DNA of 46,729 nt from a virus, in IMG/VR virus record IMGVR_UViG_3300010283_000004, positions 1 through 46,729 of that record; one strand, written 5' to 3'. The translations under genes and the position numbers were made by a program. The notes under the pieces were generated by a model, which saw only the letters and a program-made list of their open reading frames with translations, was not told where the DNA came from and ran no database searches. Of this stretch, positions 5,145 to 24,637 are shown in pieces. Positions within the stretch are counted from its first letter, which is position 1. Each line of letters begins with the position of its first letter.

Positions 5145-5915
5145 ATGAATAACTTGCAAATTTTTAAAAGTCCTGACTTTGGGCAGGTTCGTACCATTCA
5201 GCAAAATGGAGAGCCGTGGTTTATCGGCAAGGACGTGGCAGAGATTTTGGGATACAAAAAGCCTGAAAATGCTATCGCTGTTCATGTTGATGATGAAGAT
5301 AAAACCACTACCCTAATTCAGGGGACTGGTTCTAATTATAAAAGTAATGCTGTCATCATCAACGAAAGCGGTCTTTACTCTCTCATCCTCTTCAGCAAGA
5401 TGCCCAAAGCAAAGGAATTCAAGCGCTGGGTGACAAGCGAAGTCATTCCGGCAATCAGAAAGACCGGAAAGTACGAAGCTATGGCGCAGGCGGTTCCTAT
5501 CAACGATGAGCCTGTCACGGACTTCACGCAGCTGGAATTTGACCAGCGCATACGCATTGCAGCCATCATCGCAAGCTGCCGCCGCGAACGCCTGCCTCTG
5601 GTGGCGAAGGTGCTTTCCATCGACCTTGAGGAAATGATGCCGCTGATGCCGGCGCATATTACTGAGGCAGAGCAGGCCGCGTACCGGTACATCTCCAGCG
5701 TGTATGACTCGCTGGAACGTGACACGCCGATTCAGTACTTTTACACCGCTTATACAAAATGGTGCATGGAACAGAGCCTGCTGCCGTTGACGAAACACGG
5801 TGTCACAAAGGTTTTAAAAAAATACTTTCCGGTGCAGACCGTTGCCACGTCATATTATGAAAACGGCACCCGCGTGATGGGGTGCTGCAGGTGTTATCGG
5901 AAGATGGGGAGGTGA
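5145..5915 (+). CDS. BRO-N domain antirepressor-type protein
   Basis: MNNLQIFKSPDFGQVRTIQQNGEPWFIGKDVAEILGY...SGLYSLILFSKMPKAKEFKRWVTSEVIP is a BRO-N/KilA-N-like N-terminus. The start was moved to the ATG at 5145, which has SD aaaggggg. Confidence 0.8.
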   Translation: MNNLQIFKSPDFGQVRTIQQNGEPWFIGKDVAEILGYKKPENAIAVHVDDEDKTTTLIQGTGSNYKSNAVIINESGLYSLILFSKMPKAKEFKRWVTSEVIPAIRKTGKYEAMAQAVPINDEPVTDFTQLEFDQRIRIAAIIASCRRERLPLVAKVLSIDLEEMMPLMPAHITEAEQAAYRYISSVYDSLERDTPIQYFYTAYTKWCMEQSLLPLTKHGVTKVLKKYFPVQTVATSYYENGTRVMGCCRCYRKMGR

Positions 5916-5921
5916 GGAAAG

Positions 5922-6284
5922 ATGGATTTTAAAACGCCTAAAAGATTTAGACAAGCTCCCAGCAAGCTGATGCTACCGTATGAAAAACGGTTTTGGGGAG
6001 ATGTGGATCCCGAAATAATGTGTTATGCCCGTAATTTAATCTGGTACGTATCTGAACATATTAATGATACGGTTTTATTGGACTCTGAGCTTGTGACACT
6101 TGCCATGTATGACCTTATAAAAATATTTGAGTATCTTATTCCGTTTACAGCAAAAGCTGCAATGAAGAACGGTAATGATGATCGTACATTGCAGCTTTCG
6201 AGTGAAGATAAAATTAAACTTCGTGAAGGCCTAATTGATGTGTTTTCCCATCTTCAAGACCAGGCAAAGAACCGTAACGCTTAA
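5922..6284 (+). CDS. Hypothetical protein
   Basis: 120 aa with a strong SD (ggggaggtgagg). It looks AT-rich. Its 3' end overlaps the convergent ORF 6214..6633 by 71 nt. Confidence 0.55.
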   Translation: MDFKTPKRFRQAPSKLMLPYEKRFWGDVDPEIMCYARNLIWYVSEHINDTVLLDSELVTLAMYDLIKIFEYLIPFTAKAAMKNGNDDRTLQLSSEDKIKLREGLIDVFSHLQDQAKNRNA

Positions 6285-6633
6285 CTAAAACAGCATGAAC
6301 GTCTTCGCCAAAGCTTTCTAAGAATGACTTTTGATGAAGCAGCTTTGCAAAATATGTTTTTTCGGGAATTGCTAAATTTATTTCATCTAAAGAAACCATG
6401 TTCCTGAAAAATAATATTTTCATAACTTCTTCAGCAGCTTCTATACGCTGACTAAGGGAAAGACTTTTGTTGCTTAGCTGTTCTCGGCGAGTACGCTTTA
6501 TTCTTTCTCTCTCAGCATAAGTATAGGAATATCCGCATTTTGCCGCTGCTGCAAGAAATTTTAAATGATTTTCAGCATGGCTTTCATCAAGAATTTCGTT
6601 GCCACAAATATTACAAATCACAATAATCACCAC
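6214..6633 (-). CDS. Hypothetical protein encoded against the operon direction
   Basis: 139-aa ORF with SD aaaggtgg; a GTG at 6621 is the more likely start. An own extended -10 (tgatataat on the minus strand) lies at about 6642..6650. One CxxC is present near the N-terminus. Confidence 0.5.
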   Translation of the reverse strand: MVIIVICNICGNEILDESHAENHLKFLAAAAKCGYSYTYAERERIKRTRREQLSNKSLSLSQRIEAAEEVMKILFFRNMVSLDEINLAIPEKTYFAKLLHQKSFLESFGEDVHAVLVKRYGSLPGLEDGKTHQLGLHEV

Positions 6634-6673
6634 CTTTCTATAAGGTTTATTATATCACGGAGGTGATTCACGG

Positions 6674-6877
6674 ATGCAATCATTCAATCCGAATGAGCCG
6701 GTAAAAGCAATAATTGCGGCGCTGCATGAAGCGCGCGTGCCAATAGCGGCTATCGACAATGTTTTTGAATTAGTCAAAGCGGATATAAAAAATCATACCG
6801 TTCCTTATAACCCAAGTTTAGACAGCGCTAAATCTTTAGCGACTTCAGCAACTACAGAGGTGAAAAGCCAATGTTGA
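6674..6877 (+). CDS. Hypothetical protein
   Basis: 67 aa with SD ggaggtg 8 nt upstream. Confidence 0.6.
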   Translation: MQSFNPNEPVKAIIAALHEARVPIAAIDNVFELVKADIKNHTVPYNPSLDSAKSLATSATTEVKSQC

Positions 6878-7068
6878 CAATCAAAGCAAAAATGCCTTCG
6901 GCAAGCCTTGCTGAAATCAAGCAGCTTGCTAAAGGCATAAATGAAATAGAAGCAAGCTTATGTGTAAACATAGACTTGCTTCTGGAGGTTAATCAAATGT
7001 TACTTGATGGTGATGTACAAAACGTCGTTGCTGTTGCAACAGATTGTGGCGTCACCAACAAAGGTTAA
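6871..7068 (+). CDS. Hypothetical protein
   Basis: 65 aa with SD gaggtg. It shows coupled overlap with the preceding gene. Confidence 0.55.
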   Translation: MLTIKAKMPSASLAEIKQLAKGINEIEASLCVNIDLLLEVNQMLLDGDVQNVVAVATDCGVTNKG

Positions 7069-7085
7069 GGCAAGGAGATGAGATT

Positions 7086-7292
7086 ATGGCAAGTATAGAG
7101 CTTTTGACTGTTGCGGAAGTAAGCAAACTTCTGAAATGCAATGTTGATTACGTTTACAAGCTCAAGAAATCCGGTCTGCTGAGATTCATGAAGCTTGGCA
7201 ACCTTAAATGCCGCCGGGAATCTTTGGAAGAGTTCCTCAGCACATATGACGGCAAGGATGTGACTGATCCGTTTAACGTGAAGGAGTTGTAG
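7086..7292 (+). CDS. xis: Excisionase-family (MerR-like HTH_17) DNA-binding protein
   Basis: MASIELLTVAEVSKLLKCNVDYVYKLKKSGLLRFMKLG. SD aaggaga is present. The start was moved from the ORF-track 7044 to the ATG at 7086. Confidence 0.7.
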   Translation: MASIELLTVAEVSKLLKCNVDYVYKLKKSGLLRFMKLGNLKCRRESLEEFLSTYDGKDVTDPFNVKEL

Positions 7293-17571: not shown

Positions 17572-17588
17572 GCGAAGGAGTGAGCTTG

Positions 17589-17888
17589 ATGAGCAGTAAA
17601 CGTAAACTTAAGCGCCGCAATCCTGCGCCGGTGGCAGGCTTTAAATACGAGCGCATGTGTCAGACGGTGTCCGAACAGGCAATTTATCATGTGCTTGCTG
17701 TTGCGATTGATATCCTCTGGAATAACTTTGGTGGCCTGCAGCCTAAACATACACGTCTGAAGTTCTTCGCTGAGACGCTTCGTGAACGGCTTGAAGTTGT
17801 TGACCAAGGATTTACGCCGTCGCAGCAGGCAGCTATGGATGAGCTGCAGCGTCAGGCTGGGTATAGCGTGATTTGCAATCCGAAGTAA
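17589..17888 (+). CDS. Hypothetical protein
   Basis: 99 aa from the ATG at 17589 with SD gaaggag. It is the last gene before a strong terminator. Confidence 0.55.
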   Translation: MSSKRKLKRRNPAPVAGFKYERMCQTVSEQAIYHVLAVAIDILWNNFGGLQPKHTRLKFFAETLRERLEVVDQGFTPSQQAAMDELQRQAGYSVICNPK

Positions 17889-17922
17889 AAAAACGCGGTA
17901 AAAAGCAGGATTTTTTATTTCT

Positions 17923-17966
17923 CAGGTAGAATAAGATAAATATCTTATTCTACCTGTATTTTTTAT
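17923..17966 (+). terminator. Rho-independent terminator ending the early/middle operon
   Basis: 16-bp perfect stem caggtagaataagata / tatcttattctacctg (17923..17956) followed by tattttttat. Confidence 0.85.
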
Positions 17967-17970
17967 GGTG

Positions 17971-17999
17971 TTGACGAATCAGGATAATGATTGTACAAT
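17971..17999 (+). promoter_or_regulatory. Promoter of the three-gene island (TTGACG, 17 bp spacer, TACAAT)
   Basis: ttgacg at 17971..17976 and tacaat at 17994..17999 with a 17-bp spacer. It lies directly after the terminator. Confidence 0.65.
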
Positions 18000-18047
18000 A
18001 TAACAAGTTATAGCTAAATATAGCAAGATATAGGACGTGGTATACTT

Positions 18048-18563
18048 ATGGTTAACATCAAGGGCTTTCATGGCACGTTGGACGAAAAAGCTAATAAAAT
18101 TTTAAATAGCAGATTTATCCATAGCAGTAAAAATAGTGAGTGGCTTGGTTCTGGTGTATACTTCTTTGCAAAGAGACAAGATGCTGAATGGTGGGCAGAC
18201 TTAGAAACTGATAAACGAAAGAATCAAGGGTCTTTGCCAGCAGTTTTGTCAGCCGATATTATCACTGAAGATGAATTTTTCTATGATTTGGATTTTGGCT
18301 TCAATATGAATAAGATGATAGAAGAATCAAGAGATCTTCTAGAAGGTCTAAAAGGAAATCTTAATATGAATGAAGCAGAGATGAGATGTGTTGCATGTAA
18401 TTTTTTTGCTAAATTGTATGGAATAAAAGTATTTGCTTATACATTTCCATCTATAGCTCGAAATGAAATAGGGTTTCCGTACACAAGAAAACAACGGCAA
18501 ATTTGCGTGAATGATGATGATTGTATAAAAAATATACAAAAAGTTAAGGAAAGGGGTGGCTGA
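18048..18563 (+). CDS. Putative toxin: 171-aa protein with an H-Y-type ADP-ribosyltransferase-like N-terminal motif (DUF3990-like?)
   Basis: GFHGT(8-10)...WLGSGVYFFAKRQDAEWWA parallels YHGT...GFY of diphtheria toxin/exotoxin A and HGS...GxGxYF of PARPs. The third catalytic residue could not be identified by eye. It is the first gene of the AT-rich island. Confidence 0.45.
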   Translation: MVNIKGFHGTLDEKANKILNSRFIHSSKNSEWLGSGVYFFAKRQDAEWWADLETDKRKNQGSLPAVLSADIITEDEFFYDLDFGFNMNKMIEESRDLLEGLKGNLNMNEAEMRCVACNFFAKLYGIKVFAYTFPSIARNEIGFPYTRKQRQICVNDDDCIKNIQKVKERGG

Positions 18564-18565
18564 TT

Positions 18566-18805
18566 ATGTCTTACTCTAAAAAAGAATTGTTGTTCATAGA
18601 AGTTCTAAAAGAGATGGGTTTAGATTTTAAAGAAGGACCTGGAAGAATTACTATCGAGGGTGTTCCTGCTGCACAGTATCTTGATGAACACGATATTTTT
18701 GCAGTACCTGAAGAAGTATTTATTCAAGTAGGTTTTTCTGCTGAAGAAGAATATCAAGACGAGTTGTTTGATGGTTGTGAGAATAACTTGCGAAACGCAG
18801 CTTAG
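18566..18805 (+). CDS. Small acidic protein, putative antitoxin
   Basis: 79 aa, rich in D/E, with SD aaaggggtgg. It starts 2 nt after the upstream stop. Its middle position matches the toxin-antitoxin-chaperone gene order. Confidence 0.45.
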   Translation: MSYSKKELLFIEVLKEMGLDFKEGPGRITIEGVPAAQYLDEHDIFAVPEEVFIQVGFSAEEEYQDELFDGCENNLRNAA

Positions 18806-18816
18806 AAGGTGAGAAA

Positions 18817-19218
18817 ATGGAAATACGAGGAAATAGTCAAAGTGCCTTGCGCTTAAAAAATATATTTTTCCAAGATATTCATATGGAAAACAGTGGTAAA
18901 AAAACTAAAAATGTTGATGATGCACAAGCAGGATTCAGATTAGAGAAGCCGATCATTGACGAAAAATCTTTAAAAGTAGGTTTGCGGTGCAAAGTAGAGA
19001 TTGAAGGAGTTTTATATCTTCAACTATTGTTGATTGGTGAATTTGAAGGAGAAAATGAAGAGTTTCTAAAGCGTATGGTTCCTAATGCCATTGCTATAAT
19101 TTTCCCATATATGCGTAGTCAAGTTACACTGATGACAGCGCAGCCGAACTTGCCGCCGATTGTTCTTCCTCCGATCAATATCAACTCATTATTAAAAACT
19201 GACCAGATAAAATTCTAA
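18817..19218 (+). CDS. SecB-like chaperone
   Basis: LRLKNIFFQDIHME aligns with SecB FQIQRIYTKDISFE. VPNAIAIIFPYMRSQVTLMTAQPNLPPIVLPPININSLL aligns with SecB [36 protein letters not shown]. Confidence 0.8.
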   Translation: MEIRGNSQSALRLKNIFFQDIHMENSGKKTKNVDDAQAGFRLEKPIIDEKSLKVGLRCKVEIEGVLYLQLLLIGEFEGENEEFLKRMVPNAIAIIFPYMRSQVTLMTAQPNLPPIVLPPININSLLKTDQIKF

Positions 19219-19233
19219 AACAATAATTTACTC

Positions 19234-19270
19234 GACCGTTCCGTTTTGGAGCGGTCTAATTTTTCTTTAA
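19234..19270 (+). terminator. Rho-independent terminator closing the three-gene island
   Basis: Stem gaccgttcc / ggagcggtc (one G-U pair) followed by taatttttcttt. Confidence 0.7.
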
Positions 19271-19272
19271 AA

Positions 19273-19326
19273 TTCACAAAGAGTTCACAAAGGCGTGAGA
19301 AAAAGCGGTGATTTTTATGGTATAAT
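19273..19326 (+). promoter_or_regulatory. tRNA promoter: extended -10 TGgTATAAT (19318..19326), preceded by two ttcacaaag direct repeats
   Basis: ttcacaaag at 19273..19281 and 19284..19292 (11-bp phasing). tggtataat lies about 50 nt upstream of the tRNA 5' end. Confidence 0.5.
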
Positions 19327-19377
19327 AAAAACCGTGGAGAAGTGTCGATAAAATTCGATGCTCCTTTTGTTTTTTAT

Positions 19378-19468
19378 GCTGTCGTACTCAAGTCTGGTTT
19401 AAGAGGCCGCTTTTCATAAGCGGTAGGCGGATAATCTCCGTGCGTGGGTTCGTATCCCACCGGCAGCA
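19378..19468 (+). tRNA. Class II (long variable arm, Ser/Leu-like) tRNA with anticodon UCA: putative opal (UGA) suppressor
   Basis: Hand fold. Acceptor gctgtcg/cggcagc (7 bp). D arm ctc-aagtctggtttaa-gag, very like Bacillus tRNA-Ser. Anticodon stem ccgct/agcgg with loop tt-TCA-ta (anticodon at 19414..19416). 5-bp variable stem. T arm gtggg-ttcgtat-cccac. Discriminator A, and CCA is not encoded. U37 and U58 are atypical. Confidence 0.6.
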
Positions 19469-19480
19469 CCTGTTTATGTA

Positions 19481-19510
19481 GCGTCTGGCTTTTAGCCAGG
19501 CGCTTTTTTT
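19481..19510 (+). terminator. Rho-independent terminator directly after the tRNA
   Basis: gcgtctggc / gccaggcgc stem with a 5-nt loop and a T7 run (19504..19510). Confidence 0.8.
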
Positions 19511-19615
19511 ATGCCCGGAAGCCGCAACCTAAGGGACGGGACATCCCTTATTATTCTCAAATCCTCAGCGGTAGTCCGGGCACCAAACTTGCGAATATTT
19601 ACAAGGAGTGTTACC

Positions 19616-20605
19616 ATGTATATAAGCCCATTGATTATGGCAGCGCGCATCTTAGATGCTGCTTATACCAAAGATCCGAATCCTGAAAATTGGCGTACAA
19701 TCAGTGGTGCAAAAGTGCATCTTGATGGTAATGGTGACATCGATGGTGGTGCTGGTGGAAAGTTTACAGGGGAGAGTTTTACTGGTAAGAGCAGTAAAGC
19801 TGAGAATTATTCAGCTTCAGCTAGTTATGGCACTCAAACAGTACCACAGAATTCAGTGGAGGGTGTACTTCCCAAGAAGAAGTCATCGTTACGACAGGCG
19901 GCAAAAGTTTTTACAGAAGCGGAGACGGTTGGGTTAAGTAGTTTATCTAAAGCGTCAGACTATTGCCGTAATCTTGTACAATATGCTAAGGACAATAATG
20001 TTACGTCAGTTAAAGTTAGTAGACTAAAAAAGCCGTTAAAGGAAAAAGAGATTATTGCTCGAATTGCTGGTGGCGACGAGACCCAGGGCTCTTGTGCTTC
20101 TTTAGCCCTTGCTTATATTGCTAATAAATGTGGCCTTGATGTTTTGGATTTTCGTGGTGGTGAAAGTCAACAAATGTTTTCAGATCTTTTCAATTTAGTT
20201 CGGATAGGACGTTTTTCTGGTGTGGAAGAGGTGAAGGGCTTAACTTCATTGTCAGATTTTGAAAGCTTATCGGGATTCCTTGCTAATTTAGAAATGAATA
20301 AAGAATATTTTTTCAGTACTGGTGCTCATGCGGCGATTGTAAAAAGGACAAAAAGAGGATTTTGTTATCTAGAATTACAAAGTCCTGACAAGAGGGACAA
20401 TGGCTGGAAATGTCGGGGTTCTGATCCTAGAAGTATAACTAATGCGCTACTTTGGCGGTTTGGTTGCCGTCCTGAAAGACCAGGGTTTTCAGTTATGTTT
20501 TCTGTGGATTCTTGTAAAAATAGTAAGGAATTTGAGCATATAACTCAATATTTTAATACAAACGCAGAATCTCAGCAGAAGGGAGCGAATGGCAGTGTCA
20601 AATGA
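19616..20605 (+). CDS. Candidate virion-delivered effector (polyvalent-protein-like N-terminal linker plus a Cys/His papain-like-looking C-terminal domain)
   Basis: Start moved to the ATG at 19616 with SD aaggag, because the ORF-track start at 19511 lies inside the tRNA terminator. The N-terminus is NPENWRTISGAKVHLDGNGDIDGGAGGKF. The candidate nucleophile is ETQGSCASLALAY, followed by STGAHAAIV. Confidence 0.65.
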   Translation: MYISPLIMAARILDAAYTKDPNPENWRTISGAKVHLDGNGDIDGGAGGKFTGESFTGKSSKAENYSASASYGTQTVPQNSVEGVLPKKKSSLRQAAKVFTEAETVGLSSLSKASDYCRNLVQYAKDNNVTSVKVSRLKKPLKEKEIIARIAGGDETQGSCASLALAYIANKCGLDVLDFRGGESQQMFSDLFNLVRIGRFSGVEEVKGLTSLSDFESLSGFLANLEMNKEYFFSTGAHAAIVKRTKRGFCYLELQSPDKRDNGWKCRGSDPRSITNALLWRFGCRPERPGFSVMFSVDSCKNSKEFEHITQYFNTNAESQQKGANGSVK

Positions 20606-20828
20606 TAATATTTGGTATAAGAGGAATCCTTCTGACACCGTTTGGTGGCAGGACAATGGTCGTATAGGTGTCATGATTTTTAGTTTCGACCGCATAATCG
20701 AATACAATTTATTTCAAGATTACCCATGGAAATTATCCGCAGAGCAGAAAGCTGTGTTTGACAGAGAGAATCCTTTTTGGGCTAATTTCTTTGCTTCCCG
20801 TAGTGAAAGTCAGAACAATGGAAAATAA
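20589..20828 (+). CDS. Small Trp-rich protein, possible cognate immunity/partner of the upstream effector
   Basis: 79 aa with SD aagggag. It overlaps the upstream gene by 17 nt. Confidence 0.55.
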   Translation: MAVSNDNIWYKRNPSDTVWWQDNGRIGVMIFSFDRIIEYNLFQDYPWKLSAEQKAVFDRENPFWANFFASRSESQNNGK

Positions 20829-20976
20829 ATCCTCTGGTGGCGCATGTCGTGGCGCAGGTCGTCCGAAGCTGCCGCCTGAACTTAAATCAAAGCGCAAGCA
20901 TTACAACTGGTACGTCACGGAAGAAGAGCGTACGTTCCTGCTGGAGCAACTTGCTGGATATCGAAAAAATCACTAA
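20818..20976 (+). CDS. Small ribbon-helix-helix-like protein
   Basis: 52 aa from the ATG at 20818. GRPKLPPELKSKRKHYNWYVTEEERTFLLEQLA fits a beta-strand followed by a helix, as in RHH/CopG-type proteins. Confidence 0.4.
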   Translation: MENKSSGGACRGAGRPKLPPELKSKRKHYNWYVTEEERTFLLEQLAGYRKNH

Positions 20977-20981
20977 CGTAA

Positions 20982-21014
20982 CCCTCGAGCTTAACGGCTC
21001 GGGGGTTTTTATTT
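20982..21014 (+). terminator. Rho-independent terminator before the packaging genes
   Basis: ccctcgagc / gctcggggg stem followed by tttttatttt. Confidence 0.7.
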
Positions 21015-21040
21015 TGCAAGAATAGAGGTGGTGTATATGA

Positions 21041-21385
21041 ATGCCTAGAGGAGATAATCCGAATAGTAGGAAAGCATTAGCTGAAAATAGAGCAAAAACA
21101 CAGTTTCGCGGTGAAAGCGCGGTGAGAGCCGCAGAAAAATCTAATGAGAAGCGTCGTAAGCTGCGTACATTCCGTGAGCTTGACGAAGACTTTACCAGTG
21201 ATAAAGAGCGCCTCGATATGCTTGAAGCACTTAAAGCAAAGGTTAAGCAGGGGAATGTTAAGGCGTTTGAAGTATATCGTGACACCATGGGAATGAATCC
21301 GAAAGAGTCTGCTGGACAGACTCAATATGAGGATGATGGCTTTACCGATGCAATCAAACGCAGTGCAGGGGAGGTTTGGAAATGA
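21041..21385 (+). CDS. terS: Terminase small subunit
   Basis: 114 aa. The N-terminus PRGDNPNSRKALAENRAK is typical of small terminases. ATGA-coupled to the large subunit gene. Confidence 0.7.
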   Translation: MPRGDNPNSRKALAENRAKTQFRGESAVRAAEKSNEKRRKLRTFRELDEDFTSDKERLDMLEALKAKVKQGNVKAFEVYRDTMGMNPKESAGQTQYEDDGFTDAIKRSAGEVWK

Positions 21386-22707
21386 TAGGAAATCTCCGTT
21401 CTGTTATCAAGCCCGTAATACATTTTGAAAGTTTTAGTAAAAAACAAATGCAGCTTTTAACGTGGTGGTGTCCCGAATCACCATACCACGATTATGCTGG
21501 CATCATAGCTGACGGCTCCATTCGTGCTGGGAAGACAGTAGCGATGGCCGTCAGCTTTATTATTTGGGCTATGGATACCTACGATGGCCAGAACTTTGCT
21601 ATGTGCGGCAAGACTGTAGGCAGCTTCAGACGTAACGTCTGGAAATGGCTGAAACCGGTACTGTTGGTACGTGGTTATCAGCTCGAAGAATCACGCACTG
21701 AGAATCTTATTGTTATAGCTAAGGACGAACGCATTAACTATTTTTATGTGTTTGGCGGAAGGGACGAATCATCACAGGATCTTATCCAAGGTATAACATT
21801 GGCTGGCCTTTACTGTGATGAGGTCGCGCTGATGCCGGAGTCGTTTGTCAATCAGGCAACAGGTCGTTGTTCTGTAGAGGGCGCTAAAATGTGGTTCAAC
21901 TGTAACCCTGATTCACCTATGCATTGGTTCTTGCTCCGGTGGATTGAAAAGCGGGATGAGAAAAGGCTGCTGCATCTCCATTTTCTGATGGATGATAATC
22001 CTTCACTTAGTGAGGCAGTGCGGGAGCGTTACCGCACAACTTATTCCGGAGTATTCTACAGACGATTTATCCTAGGCGAATGGGTAATGGCTCAAGGTGC
22101 TATTTATCGTGATGCATGGGATGATGATGAGCTGCTCTTTGATGACGAGAAGCTGGAGTATCTGCTCCGTAATCTTCACATCATGAAGCGCTCTATAACG
22201 ATAGACTATGGTACAGTCAATCCTATGGTTTATCTTGACGTGCTCGATGATGGTACAGATTTGTGGTTTATACGTGAGTATTACTGGGATAGCAGAGCAG
22301 AACAACGCGAGAAGGACAACAGCCAGTACGCTGATGACCTGCTTGAGTTCGTGCGTGGAGTTGAGCTGTGGCCTTCAAACGTGGTTATTGACCCATCTGC
22401 AGCAAGCTTTAAGATTGAGCTGCGCAACCGAGGCTTGCATGCAAAAGAGACTGTGGAAACAATCAACGCCGACAATGATGTTATAGAGGGCATCCGCAAG
22501 GTGAATACACTGATGACTCGACGTAAGATACATTTTTATAAGGGCTTGACTCATACAATTAAGGAGTTAAAGGCTTATGTATGGGATGATAAAGCGCTGC
22601 AGAACAGCGGTAAGGAGAAGCCTATTAAGGTAGCAGACCACTGTCCGGATGCGGTCCGCTATTATGTCAGCACTATAATCAGGCCAAGGAGGATAGCAAA
22701 TGTCTAA
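21382..22707 (+). CDS. terL: Terminase large subunit (PBSX/Terminase_3-type)
   Basis: Walker A DGSIRAGKT and Walker B LYCDEV. A C-terminal nuclease region with DHCPDAVRY is present. ATG at 21382 with SD ggggagg. Confidence 0.9.
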   Translation: MIGNLRSVIKPVIHFESFSKKQMQLLTWWCPESPYHDYAGIIADGSIRAGKTVAMAVSFIIWAMDTYDGQNFAMCGKTVGSFRRNVWKWLKPVLLVRGYQLEESRTENLIVIAKDERINYFYVFGGRDESSQDLIQGITLAGLYCDEVALMPESFVNQATGRCSVEGAKMWFNCNPDSPMHWFLLRWIEKRDEKRLLHLHFLMDDNPSLSEAVRERYRTTYSGVFYRRFILGEWVMAQGAIYRDAWDDDELLFDDEKLEYLLRNLHIMKRSITIDYGTVNPMVYLDVLDDGTDLWFIREYYWDSRAEQREKDNSQYADDLLEFVRGVELWPSNVVIDPSAASFKIELRNRGLHAKETVETINADNDVIEGIRKVNTLMTRRKIHFYKGLTHTIKELKAYVWDDKALQNSGKEKPIKVADHCPDAVRYYVSTIIRPRRIANV

Positions 22708-24637
22708 AAGAAAACGTACGCTAAGTGCTCCGGCACCACAGCTTCGAAGAGCGAGGGCGCTTGATGCATTTACTAATGTGCTTGCCAGGCTGGGTGCGGG
22801 CACTCCGAACCTGCTGGAAGGCACGGAGTACAGTTTGCAGCGCCTTAGCCGTGATTTCAATCAGCTGAATGCGTTATACCGCGAGAGCTGGATAATACGT
22901 CGTATTATTGACGTTATTCCGGCCGATATGTTAAAGAACTGGATAACAATTACTAGCGGTATTGATCCGGATGTAGAGAAGAAACTCAGTATTTCTCTGA
23001 GACGTACGCAGCTCATCGACAAGCTTAAGCGTGGCATGCAGTGGGGCAGACTTTATGGAGGGGCGCTTGGCGTGATGTTGGTCAAGCATCAGGGCTATAA
23101 TCTCAGTCAGCCGCTTAGGCTTGATTGGATAATGCCTGGGGACTTCGCAGGGCTTCTCATTTTCGACCGGTGGAACGGAGTTAATCCATCCAACGAGCTT
23201 ATTGAAGATATTTCAGATCCTGATTATGGTTATCCGAAATATTACACTGTAACTGATCCTGCCGGTGGTGGTTCTGTAAAAATACACCATAGCAGAGTAA
23301 TCAGATTTACCGGCAACACATTACCTTTTTGGGAAGAAATTGCCGAGATGCAGTGGGGAGCTTCTGTGGTCGAGTCTGTTTTTGATGAGTTGAAGAAGCG
23401 CGATAACGTATCATGGAATATTGCACAGCTGACGTTCATGGCCAATATCCGTGTGCTTAAAATGCAGGACTTAGGCCAGCTGTTGGCTGCTACTGACAGT
23501 GAGTCGCAGGCTGAGCTGCTGCGCACGTTGGAGGCACAGAACATGCTGCTGAACAATATGGGTATGCAAGTAATGGATGCGGCAGATGGGCTGGAAACGC
23601 ATCAGTATACATTCGGCGGGCTGGCTGATTGTTATCAGCAGTTTATCATGGATATCTCCGGTGCCGCTGAGATACCGGTGACAAAGCTGTTCGGAAGGTC
23701 TCCGTCCGGGCTAAATGCTACTGGTGAAAGTGACTTGCAGAATTACTATGATATGATAGCAGAAAAGCAGGAAGCTGTGTTAAGACCTATCTTAAACAAG
23801 GTATTGCCGCCTTTTATCATTTCAACTATTGGCAGTTTGCCGGACGACTTTGATTTTGAATTCGACCCGGTTGCAGAGCCTACGGATAAAGAGCGCGCCG
23901 ACCTTGCCAAGTGTGGCACAGATAACGTTGTAGCTGCTTACAATGCTGGGCTTATCTCTCAGCGCACTGCCCTGAAGGAGCTGAAGCAGCAGAGCGAGCG
24001 CACCGGTGTCTGGACGAATATCACAGATGAGGACATCGAGCGTGCGTCCGACTCCGTGGAGCCGCCTGGTGAGATGGGAGGCATGTTTGGTGGCGAAGAA
24101 CCGATTGAACCACAGGCGTCTGCTTCTGTTAGGCAAGTGAAAAGTGCAGATGCTGCTTTCTGGAGTGAGGCTGATGATTTTAATTCACATCATAGTCCTG
24201 AGAATGGACGATTTTGTGAAGCCGATGGTGTTGGCGGTGGGGCTGGAAGAACAAATAACTTGCAAGAAAGCAAAAATAATGGTACAATCAGCACCAAAGA
24301 AACGATAGCTCCAGAATGGTTTATTAAACAGAACAGGCCATTATTGATGAATGCGGAAATTAAGCAGTTGGGACATGTGCGTTGGATAAGTAAACATGTT
24401 TTTGACCGTATGTGGGAGCGTGGAATAAATGCGGAAGAAATAAAGGATACCATCAAAAATGGAGAGAGAGCTGTTGATAATCAATACGGAGGTTATATTT
24501 ACTCTTCAAACGGGATAAAAGTTTGTGTTACTAAGAGTGGAGGCTTAAAAACGGTTATCAATAAGTCTACACAAAATTTTAAAACTTCTCTCGGAGCAAT
24601 ATTTTTGGAGGCTAAAAATGCTAAAAAAACTAATTGA
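22700..24637 (+). CDS. Portal protein (DUF1073/HI1409-type) fused to a C-terminal DUF4258/RelE-fold-like toxin domain
   Basis: The portal core runs to about residue 475. It is followed by the linker SHHSPENGRFCEADGVGGGAG and then ISKHVFDRMWERGINAEEIKDTIKNGERAVDNQYGGYIYSSNGIKVCVTKSGGLKTVI (about 24386..24560), which matches the DUF4258 pattern S-x-H-A-x-x-R-M-x-E-R-G-I. Confidence 0.85.
   Translation: MSKRKRTLSAPAPQLRRARALDAFTNVLARLGAGTPNLLEGTEYSLQRLSRDFNQLNALYRESWIIRRIIDVIPADMLKNWITITSGIDPDVEKKLSISLRRTQLIDKLKRGMQWGRLYGGALGVMLVKHQGYNLSQPLRLDWIMPGDFAGLLIFDRWNGVNPSNELIEDISDPDYGYPKYYTVTDPAGGGSVKIHHSRVIRFTGNTLPFWEEIAEMQWGASVVESVFDELKKRDNVSWNIAQLTFMANIRVLKMQDLGQLLAATDSESQAELLRTLEAQNMLLNNMGMQVMDAADGLETHQYTFGGLADCYQQFIMDISGAAEIPVTKLFGRSPSGLNATGESDLQNYYDMIAEKQEAVLRPILNKVLPPFIISTIGSLPDDFDFEFDPVAEPTDKERADLAKCGTDNVVAAYNAGLISQRTALKELKQQSERTGVWTNITDEDIERASDSVEPPGEMGGMFGGEEPIEPQASASVRQVKSADAAFWSEADDFNSHHSPENGRFCEADGVGGGAGRTNNLQESKNNGTISTKETIAPEWFIKQNRPLLMNAEIKQLGHVRWISKHVFDRMWERGINAEEIKDTIKNGERAVDNQYGGYIYSSNGIKVCVTKSGGLKTVINKSTQNFKTSLGAIFLEAKNAKKTN

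Follow-up and report, generated by a model that had tools for sequence, protein, structure and literature searches.

CmdTAC, catalogued as PD-T4-9, is a toxin-antitoxin-chaperone (TAC) anti-phage system of Escherichia coli ECOR22 (Vassallo 2022, PMC9519451; Vassallo 2024, PMC11618068), and it is described by its authors as widespread among Gram-negative and Gram-positive bacteria. The toxin, CmdT, is an ADP-ribosyltransferase (ART) with an H-Y-[E/D/Q] triad, in which the Y41A substitution abolishes toxicity as well as defense, and its substrate is single-stranded mRNA, which it ADP-ribosylates on adenine N6 within GA dinucleotides; the antitoxin CmdA has LAA at its end and is broken down by ClpXP, and the SecB-like chaperone CmdC is titrated by T4's major capsid protein (Vassallo 2022, 2024). 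According to the rule given by the same authors, the CmdT homolog comes first and a small downstream open reading frame (ORF) second, the sequence of the latter being free to vary. Further prophage-encoded TAC modules are CmdTAC of E. coli O112ab:H26 and HigBAC of E. coli NT1F31 (Mets et al., bioRxiv 10.1101/2024.02.24.581848). The CmdT proteins of ECOR22 and O112ab:H26 both target mRNA, and both systems are prophage-encoded, as cargo of prophage hotspots, with measured anti-phage defense.

Here, we analyzed a 46,729-nt stretch of viral DNA (IMG/VR record IMGVR_UViG_3300010283_000004, positions 1 to 46,729; hereafter the window), in which a preliminary description had read a 171-aa ORF as an ADP-ribosyltransferase of the H-Y-E clade and had left its target open. 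This ORF proved to be the first of three closely spaced genes, and the best explanation, to which we assign a probability of roughly 80%, is that the cassette at 17889-19221 is a self-contained member of the CmdTAC family (PADLOC PD-T4-9), carried as phage cargo in a hotspot upstream of the packaging genes. It is a divergent copy of a published system and not a new kind, and with CmdTAC already in the literature (Nature Microbiology 2022; Nature 2024; Mets et al. 2024 preprint) the value of the finding is incremental; it extends CmdTAC, in a divergent form, to a temperate phage of, probably, gut Negativicutes, far from the P2-like prophages of E. coli in which the system was studied. The three genes are as follows.

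18048..18563, plus strand: cmdT-like toxin ORF, ATG start, 171 aa, ART fold, candidate catalytic residues H8, Y38 and Q151
18566..18805, plus strand: cmdA-like antitoxin gene, 79 aa, starting 2 nt past the toxin stop, C-terminus ...L-R-N-A-A
18817..19218, plus strand: cmdC-like gene of a SecB-family chaperone, 133 aa, after an 11-nt gap behind the antitoxin gene

Comparison of the cassette with described TAC systems

The published primers allowed about 70 nt of native ECOR22 sequence to be rebuilt, and matching this stretch in complete E. coli genomes gave the canonical locus (98.6% identity). As read in E. coli N2250 (locus L088), canonical CmdTAC encodes proteins of 192, 77 and 129 aa and is located in a P2-like prophage, with the replication genes on one side and the portal/terminase genes on the other. 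CmdT residues are numbered here from the GTG start used in the CmdTAC papers; the RefSeq start lies two codons upstream, and the offset was corrected. The window cassette has the same gene order and products of near-identical size (171, 79 and 133 aa), and both loci are tightly packed operons carried as prophage-hotspot cargo near packaging genes. In addition, the ECOR22-type CmdA ends in ...DLAA and the window antitoxin in ...LRNAA, with Ala-Ala in both. The two differ in their carriers, the window phage not being P2-like and its host belonging to the gut Negativicutes.

The chaperone matched the PADLOC profile PD-T4-9_C over its full length (E 4.5e-14) and the NCBIfam SecB profile (E 1.6e-5), scored 26.9 bits against Pfam SecB (gathering cutoff 26), and was 29% identical to E. 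coli CmdC (BLASTP, E 9e-8). The toxin matched PD-T4-9_A with an E-value of 1.8e-4, and the same profile was matched by 65 of 77 diverse toxin homologs (best E 6.6e-12). Furthermore, hhalign comparison of the toxin family with E. coli CmdT gave a probability of 95% (E 3.5e-8), the hidden Markov model (HMM) alignment being nearly full length (model 5-165 against residues 5-172) and pairing H8 with H9, Y38 with Y41, Q151 with Q163, and C153-V154 with C165-V166; an ART fold with H, Y and Q-x-C-V at equivalent positions is common to the window toxin and ECOR22 CmdT. The first gene is, very probably, the ART-fold toxin of a TAC module. The preliminary description, which had viewed this gene alone, was borne out in its ART call and had missed the three-gene toxin-antitoxin-chaperone context, within which its open question about the target narrows to mRNA as the leading candidate.

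The antitoxin carries a net charge of -12, and its C-terminal half is rich in aromatic and acidic residues (30% D/E and 12% aromatic in the tail). Its AlphaFold2 model, built from a shallow 10-sequence alignment, contains a helix at residues 5-16 and has a predicted local distance difference test (pLDDT) score of 55 overall and below 50 over most of residues 44-79. These properties suggest a chaperone-addiction (ChAD-type) tail.

The systems described by Mets et al. combine an antitoxin bearing an aromatic chaperone-addiction tail with a chaperone that acts as the phage sensor, and CmdA of O112ab:H26 has a C-terminal Ala-Ala ClpX degron, its length being 121 aa versus 79 aa for the window antitoxin. 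HigBAC of NT1F31 is unlike the window cassette in having an unrelated RNase toxin and no degron. HigBA1-SecB(TA) of Mycobacterium tuberculosis and the classical TACs follow a logic in common with the window cassette, in which a toxin goes with an antitoxin extended for chaperone addiction and with a SecB-like chaperone of its own, but their toxin is a HigB RNase instead of an ART and their antitoxin is a canonical HigA with a DNA-binding fold.

Fold and conserved residues of the toxin

The ORF and its translation agreed exactly with the preliminary description, as did the numbering of H8, Y38 and R150-Q-I-C-V154 and the His-Tyr spacing of 30 residues; the quoted motif stretch GFHGT...AEWWA is also present, at residues 6-50 and not, as given there, 7-50. 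A word-indexed search yielded 21 close homolog clusters, and an exhaustive profile search enlarged the family to 2,613 representative clusters at E<=1e-3, 936 of them at E<=1e-10. Conservation was counted in a 77-sequence alignment spanning the diversity of the family, with a mean column identity of 22%. H8, G34, G36 and Y38 were invariant in it (77/77), T10, W32, F39, W49, F133, Q151 and C153 were each kept in at least 74 of the 77 sequences, and D82 was kept in 71. On this alignment the H/Y motif is no chance pattern, because four of its residues are invariant despite such low overall identity.

The AlphaFold2 model of the toxin, built with a homolog alignment, had a pLDDT of 91.6 and a predicted TM-score (pTM) of 0.86. 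In a Foldseek search of the PDB with this model, ranks 1-28 were occupied exclusively by ART folds (probability 0.85-1.0, TM-score about 0.45-0.5), including PARP1, PARP2, PARP3, PARP4, exotoxin A, diphtheria toxin and the RES toxins NatT and VPA0770; the match to exotoxin A (1AER) had a root-mean-square deviation of 6.5 Å. Among predicted viral structures (BFVD), 22 matches were found at E<=1e-3, with ART-PolyVal domains on top. At the profile level, the toxin alone gave no match to Pfam, including its ADP-ribosyl clan, even at E<=1, only noise against NCBIfam, and only noise in a phmmer search of the PDB (desmoglein, Cas5; E about 1). Its relatives filled this gap in part: Pfam PARP was matched by 27 of the 77 family members (best E 3.1e-5), ART-PolyVal by five, DUF3990 by four and Exotox-A_cataly by one, and the best sequence matches of the family profile in the PDB were PARP10 (E 0.0086, with YHGT and GKGVYF aligned), PARP16 and exotoxin A. 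The assignment to the H-Y-E clade, as originally proposed from the motif, is thus supported by the ART-only fold matches, by the PARP matches of the relatives, and by the family alignment to CmdT in which Y38 falls on Y41. The motif reading had picked up what a single-sequence HMM search misses, and HMM annotation of single sequences recognizes the locus only partly, the toxin being without a Pfam match and having a partial match in PADLOC.

In common with the H-Y-E ARTs, such as the PARPs, exotoxin A, diphtheria toxin, ART-PolyVal and DarT, the window toxin has the fold (Foldseek probability 0.85-1.0, TM-score about 0.45-0.59), the strand-1 His and the Tyr within G-x-G-x-Y-F. It differs from them in being a minimal 171-aa domain with a two-helix insert, in its likely substrate, which by homology would be mRNA, and in having Gln in place of the catalytic Glu. 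Its partners are an antitoxin and a chaperone, unlike the DarG macrodomain that accompanies DarT.

The preliminary description had failed to locate a convincing catalytic Glu, and rightly so, since no Glu is conserved in the 77-sequence alignment. The loop ahead of the last long strand has a single Glu, E140, which is variable and was rejected as a catalytic residue. The Glu expected at the third position of an H-Y-E enzyme is instead a Gln: the conserved late polar residue is Q151 (76/77), which lies in R-Q-I-C-V on the last long strand, and position 149 is Q or E in 60 of the 77 sequences, giving the motif [Q/E]149-x-Q151-x-C-V. Q151 immediately precedes a hydrophobic x-C-V strand, a position which we take to be like that of the catalytic E988-Y-I-V of PARP1. 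D82 was not proposed as catalytic, since the Asp of canonical CmdT is aligned with D80 instead of D82 by the family HMM. The equivalent Gln (Q163) is present in active CmdT, and a Gln at the third position is therefore no argument against activity. The predicted third catalytic position of the window toxin is thus a conserved Gln common to active CmdT, which answers the question that the motif reading had left open.

Recurrence of the gene trio and the antitoxin terminus

We surveyed 85 loci containing a toxin homolog, mostly from Bacillota with a few from other phyla. The trio of toxin, small ORF and SecB was present in 59 of them, with a middle ORF of 69-126 aa and a chaperone of 126-154 aa, and in 57 of these 59 TAC-type loci the 69-126-aa ORF directly followed the toxin. 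Loci whose toxins were 51%, 52% and 27% identical to that of the window kept the order of toxin (170-202 aa), antitoxin (73-79 aa) and SecB (130-134 aa) and were flanked by unrelated chromosomal genes; the trio is a mobile unit that occurs in unrelated genomic contexts.

The middle ORFs were hypervariable, and yet 44 of the 53 unique sequences ended in AA (27) or AC (17), and Ala occupied the -2 position in 46 of the 53, versus 3.7% of the background. Among the long ORFs of the same loci that served as background (n=379), one ended in AA and none in AC. The A-[A/C] C-terminus is, in this survey, the one conserved feature of an otherwise hypervariable antitoxin.

Twenty-two further loci (e.g., L021, L030, L066 and L087) contained a toxin homolog that keeps the H and Y motifs and, as in the window, a small ORF at once downstream (50-160 aa, overlapping), so that chaperone-free two-gene versions exist within the same toxin family. 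No SecB-like ORF was found within 3 kb on either strand of these 22 loci, which had ample downstream sequence, and none of their small ORFs ended in A-[A/C]. In about half of them, the third motif was missed by a simple pattern search for Q-x-[C/V]-V. Because none of the small ORFs in the chaperone-less loci has this ending, the degron-like terminus co-occurs with the chaperone, which is a prediction of the chaperone-addiction model. The survey thereby yields two small testable generalizations: that the A-[A/C] antitoxin terminus is conserved, and that it strictly co-occurs with the SecB chaperone, being absent from two-gene versions.

Separately, another TAC cassette, in locus L007, is followed after about 750 bp by genes (5900-7202) for a DUF3990 protein (225 aa) and an overlapping HTH_3 protein (214 aa); this pair is possibly a second ART-based two-gene module in the same defense neighborhood.

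Insertion site and host

The window represents a complete temperate phage, with an integrase, a DUF927 primase, a helicase and an extracytoplasmic function (ECF)-sigma-like gene before the cassette, and the small and large terminases, portal, major capsid and tail genes after it. In two relatives (L118 and L126), blastn and junction alignment showed that window position 17888, with which the upstream stop codon ends, is joined directly to about 19222. Since the flanks are contiguous at these positions, the insert bounds were set to 17889-19221. The GC content of the insert is 0.341, as compared with 0.471 over the window as a whole and 0.508 in the left flank. A scan of the region for terminators returned six terminator-like sites versus 1.3 expected, and Rfam revealed no known RNA inside the cassette. 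The elements of the insert and its edges, besides the three genes, are listed below.

17889..19221, strand not applicable: inserted cassette (moron), about 1.33 kb, 34.1% GC, comprising terminator hairpin, promoter and three genes
17923..17956, plus strand: terminator-like hairpin at the 5' edge of the insert, 15-bp stem and T-run, from a consensus scan
17971..17999, plus strand: predicted sigma-70-like promoter, TTGACG-17 nt-TACAAT, 10/12 match, 49 nt upstream of the toxin ATG and inside the insert
19234..19256, plus strand: backbone terminator-like hairpin, 16 nt past the chaperone stop, also at the empty site of relatives

Judging from its position, the hairpin at 17923..17956 would insulate the cassette from upstream phage transcription. 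In L118 and L126, a homologous hairpin (GACCGC...GCGGTC) directly follows the upstream gene.

For a comparison of the site, relatives sharing the large terminase were examined, with the 102-aa gene at 17580-17888 and the small terminase at 21041-21385 as flanking markers. Thirty-six related loci keep both markers; the cassette is present in three of them (L089, L113 and L190) and absent from 33, and a fourth locus (L094) has the antitoxin and chaperone at its contig end. Across the 36 loci, the upstream marker and the large terminase are 2.1 to 5.1 kb apart and the gene content differs, and the site is by this variation hypervariable; the interval 17889-21040 of the window is a hypervariable cargo hotspot upstream of the terminase. 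In relatives, the hotspot may hold other defense or counter-defense genes, and as a defined site in this phage group it could be mined for them.

The host is probably Phascolarctobacterium or another member of the Acidaminococcaceae, to judge from the nearest sequences: an antitoxin 89% identical to that of the window is annotated from P. succinatutens, and the nearest terminases in named genomes belong to metagenome-assembled genomes (MAGs) of Selenomonadaceae and Acidaminococcaceae. Megablast of the region against a phage collection and 5,426 complete E. coli genomes gave no match, and tblastn against deposited phages gave three distant matches only, to a human fecal phage contig and two Streptococcus satellite prophages. 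Contigs of the phage group in four loci (L008, L091, L094 and L095) are binned in species-representative MAGs labeled Escherichia coli, Ruminococcus intestinalis and Bacteroidaceae, all from one "cleanbin" project. These labels are likely binning errors, because they are mutually contradictory and none of the 5,426 complete E. coli genomes matched the window.

Proposed mechanism and alternative explanations

By analogy with the E. coli systems, toxin, antitoxin and chaperone would form an inert complex in the lysogen, in which the chaperone would hold and shield the unstructured, aromatic-rich tail of the antitoxin. Upon infection by a second phage, an abundant newly made structural protein would compete for the chaperone, and the exposed antitoxin would be degraded by ClpXP via its C-terminal Ala-Ala. 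The freed toxin would then use NAD+ to ADP-ribosylate single-stranded mRNA, as canonical CmdT does at N6 of adenine in GA dinucleotides, and this modification would stop translation and abort the infection. We hold the chances of a structural-protein trigger with ClpXP release to be about even, and lean slightly towards mRNA as the target of the toxin.

Several points weigh against the CmdTAC assignment or its mechanism. The PD-T4-9_A match of the window toxin covers model positions 9-58 of 187 only, and its single-sequence similarity to CmdT is weak and N-terminal (BLASTP, 30% identity over 47 residues, E 1e-4). BLASTP detected no similarity between the antitoxin and E. coli CmdA; according to the CmdTAC authors, such a lack of antitoxin similarity is usual. 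The low confidence of the antitoxin model, which comes from its shallow alignment, leaves the ChAD-type tail at the level of a suggestion. The host is a Negativicutes bacterium and not E. coli, and recognition of the ...NAA end by ClpXP there is assumed; the model leaves unexplained what keeps the prophage's own capsid from triggering the cassette on induction. Finally, the central helical region of the toxin (about residues 84-124) is unalignable with CmdT and may hold determinants of substrate specificity, and the target and sequence specificity are for this reason not safely transferable from CmdT.

The substrate is accordingly the weakest transfer from CmdTAC, because the NAD-binding core (the N-terminal ~90 residues and the Q-x-C-V strand) is all that aligns with CmdT, and the central two-helix insert (H84-104 and H109-124 in the model) does not. 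The main rival explanation, which we consider unlikely on balance, retains the CmdT-related ART toxin in a TAC module and gives it a different substrate, such as another RNA base or context, tRNA or rRNA, single-stranded DNA, or protein. ARTs of one clade do differ in their targets, DarT acting on DNA, PARPs on protein and CmdT on mRNA, and Pfam PARP and ART-PolyVal fit members of the toxin family roughly as well as any other profile. On the other hand, the conserved aromatic residues W32, F39, F40, W49 and F133 parallel those highlighted by the authors of CmdT, the operon logic is identical to that of CmdTAC, and mRNA is the target of both characterized CmdT proteins.

A bolder proposal, which we likewise rate as unlikely, is that this clade of CmdT-like toxins, centered on Bacillota and Negativicutes, has a specificity other than GA-adenine in mRNA and a chaperone that senses a structural protein of a completely different phage group, and that the two- and three-gene versions record the passage from a plain toxin-antitoxin pair to a phage sensor by joint gain of degron and SecB chaperone. 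It builds on the [Q/E]-x-Q-x-C-V strand, taken as invariant in the clade, and on the central helical insert that cannot be aligned with E. coli CmdT.

Less probable again is that the cassette serves mainly to stabilize the prophage as an addiction module, through post-segregational killing, or to regulate the lytic cycle of its own phage, and not in defense against other phages. A toxin-antitoxin module with an unstable antitoxin on a mobile element would fit this role, and the cassette adjoins the packaging and capsid genes of the phage itself, whose products could trigger it. Both homologous E. coli systems, however, are defensive prophage cargo by measurement, and the cassette sits in a hypervariable cargo hotspot of the kind typical of defense genes. 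Moreover, most close relatives of the phage are without the cassette, and it is therefore dispensable for the phage life cycle. An addiction or regulatory role and a defense role are not mutually exclusive.

It is very improbable that the toxin kills by depleting NAD, as an NAD+-consuming NADase or NAD phosphorylase similar to the RES toxins would, and not by transfer of ADP-ribose to a macromolecule. NatT (8qnl) and VPA0770 (8gug) did rank second and fifth in the PDB fold search with PARP-like scores, and a Gln in place of the catalytic Glu could alter the chemistry. Nevertheless, no RES-family match was found in Pfam or PADLOC for the toxin or its 77 relatives, the conserved residues are H/Y/Q and not R/E/S, and canonical CmdT, with the same Gln, is a bona fide transferase. 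RES/NADase membership was rejected on these conserved residues and profiles, the likeness to NatT and VPA0770 being one of fold only.

Membership in DUF3990 (PF13151), the second suggestion of the preliminary description, is hardly credible and effectively refuted: four of the 77 family members match this Pfam family (best E 4.4e-5), the N-terminal YHG...G-x-G-x-Y...A..WA pattern is common to both and a DUF3990 gene lies near one TAC cassette (L007), but the window toxin has no DUF3990 match at E<=1, hhalign of the family with the L007 DUF3990 protein reached a probability of 11% over 48 N-terminal columns only, and PD-T4-9_A and PARP are matched by far more members (65 and 27 of 77), which reduces the resemblance to the level of the clan.

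Other features of the window

Between the cassette and the terminase genes lies a 364-aa ORF (19511-20605, plus strand) without a Pfam match, the C-terminal ~200 aa of which match C-terminal parts of PHROG 7104 (unknown function) and PHROG 4728 ("head morphogenesis"). In relatives with about 70% identity in the large terminase, a domain homologous to that of the 364-aa ORF occurs about 3.5 kb past the large-terminase start, beyond a portal-sized ORF and outside the hotspot; the C-terminal part of the 364-aa ORF may represent a mobile C-terminal effector domain of minor head proteins. Its annotated N-terminus overlaps two terminator-like hairpins, and its true start is for this reason probably further downstream. 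The end of this gene is overlapped by that of a 79-aa DUF7675 protein (20589-20828, plus strand; E 6.5e-28, phrog_6473), which is part of the variable region and present only in the closest relatives, L113 and L190. Further downstream, the 645-aa portal protein (22700-24637, plus strand; Phage_portal_3, E 1e-119) is extended at its C-terminus, and in this extension residues 563-596 weakly match DUF4258 (23.5 bits, slightly short of the cutoff of 25).

A 93-nt tRNA (19378-19470, plus strand) with the anticodon UCA, which reads UGA, is located in the backbone of the phage, after the cassette and before the next gene. It was called as tRNA-SeC by ARAGORN and matched the generic tRNA model of Rfam with 45.9 bits, and it has a long variable arm and a cloverleaf fold (z = -3.6). 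The same tRNA was detected in the relatives L089, L113 and L170, the last of which is without the TAC cassette, and not in seven others checked, including the cassette-bearing L190; it is independent of the cassette by virtue of this distribution. The large ORFs of the phage look intact under the standard code, and the tRNA could therefore act as a suppressor of UGA or be a selenocysteine tRNA that a temperate phage has on board.

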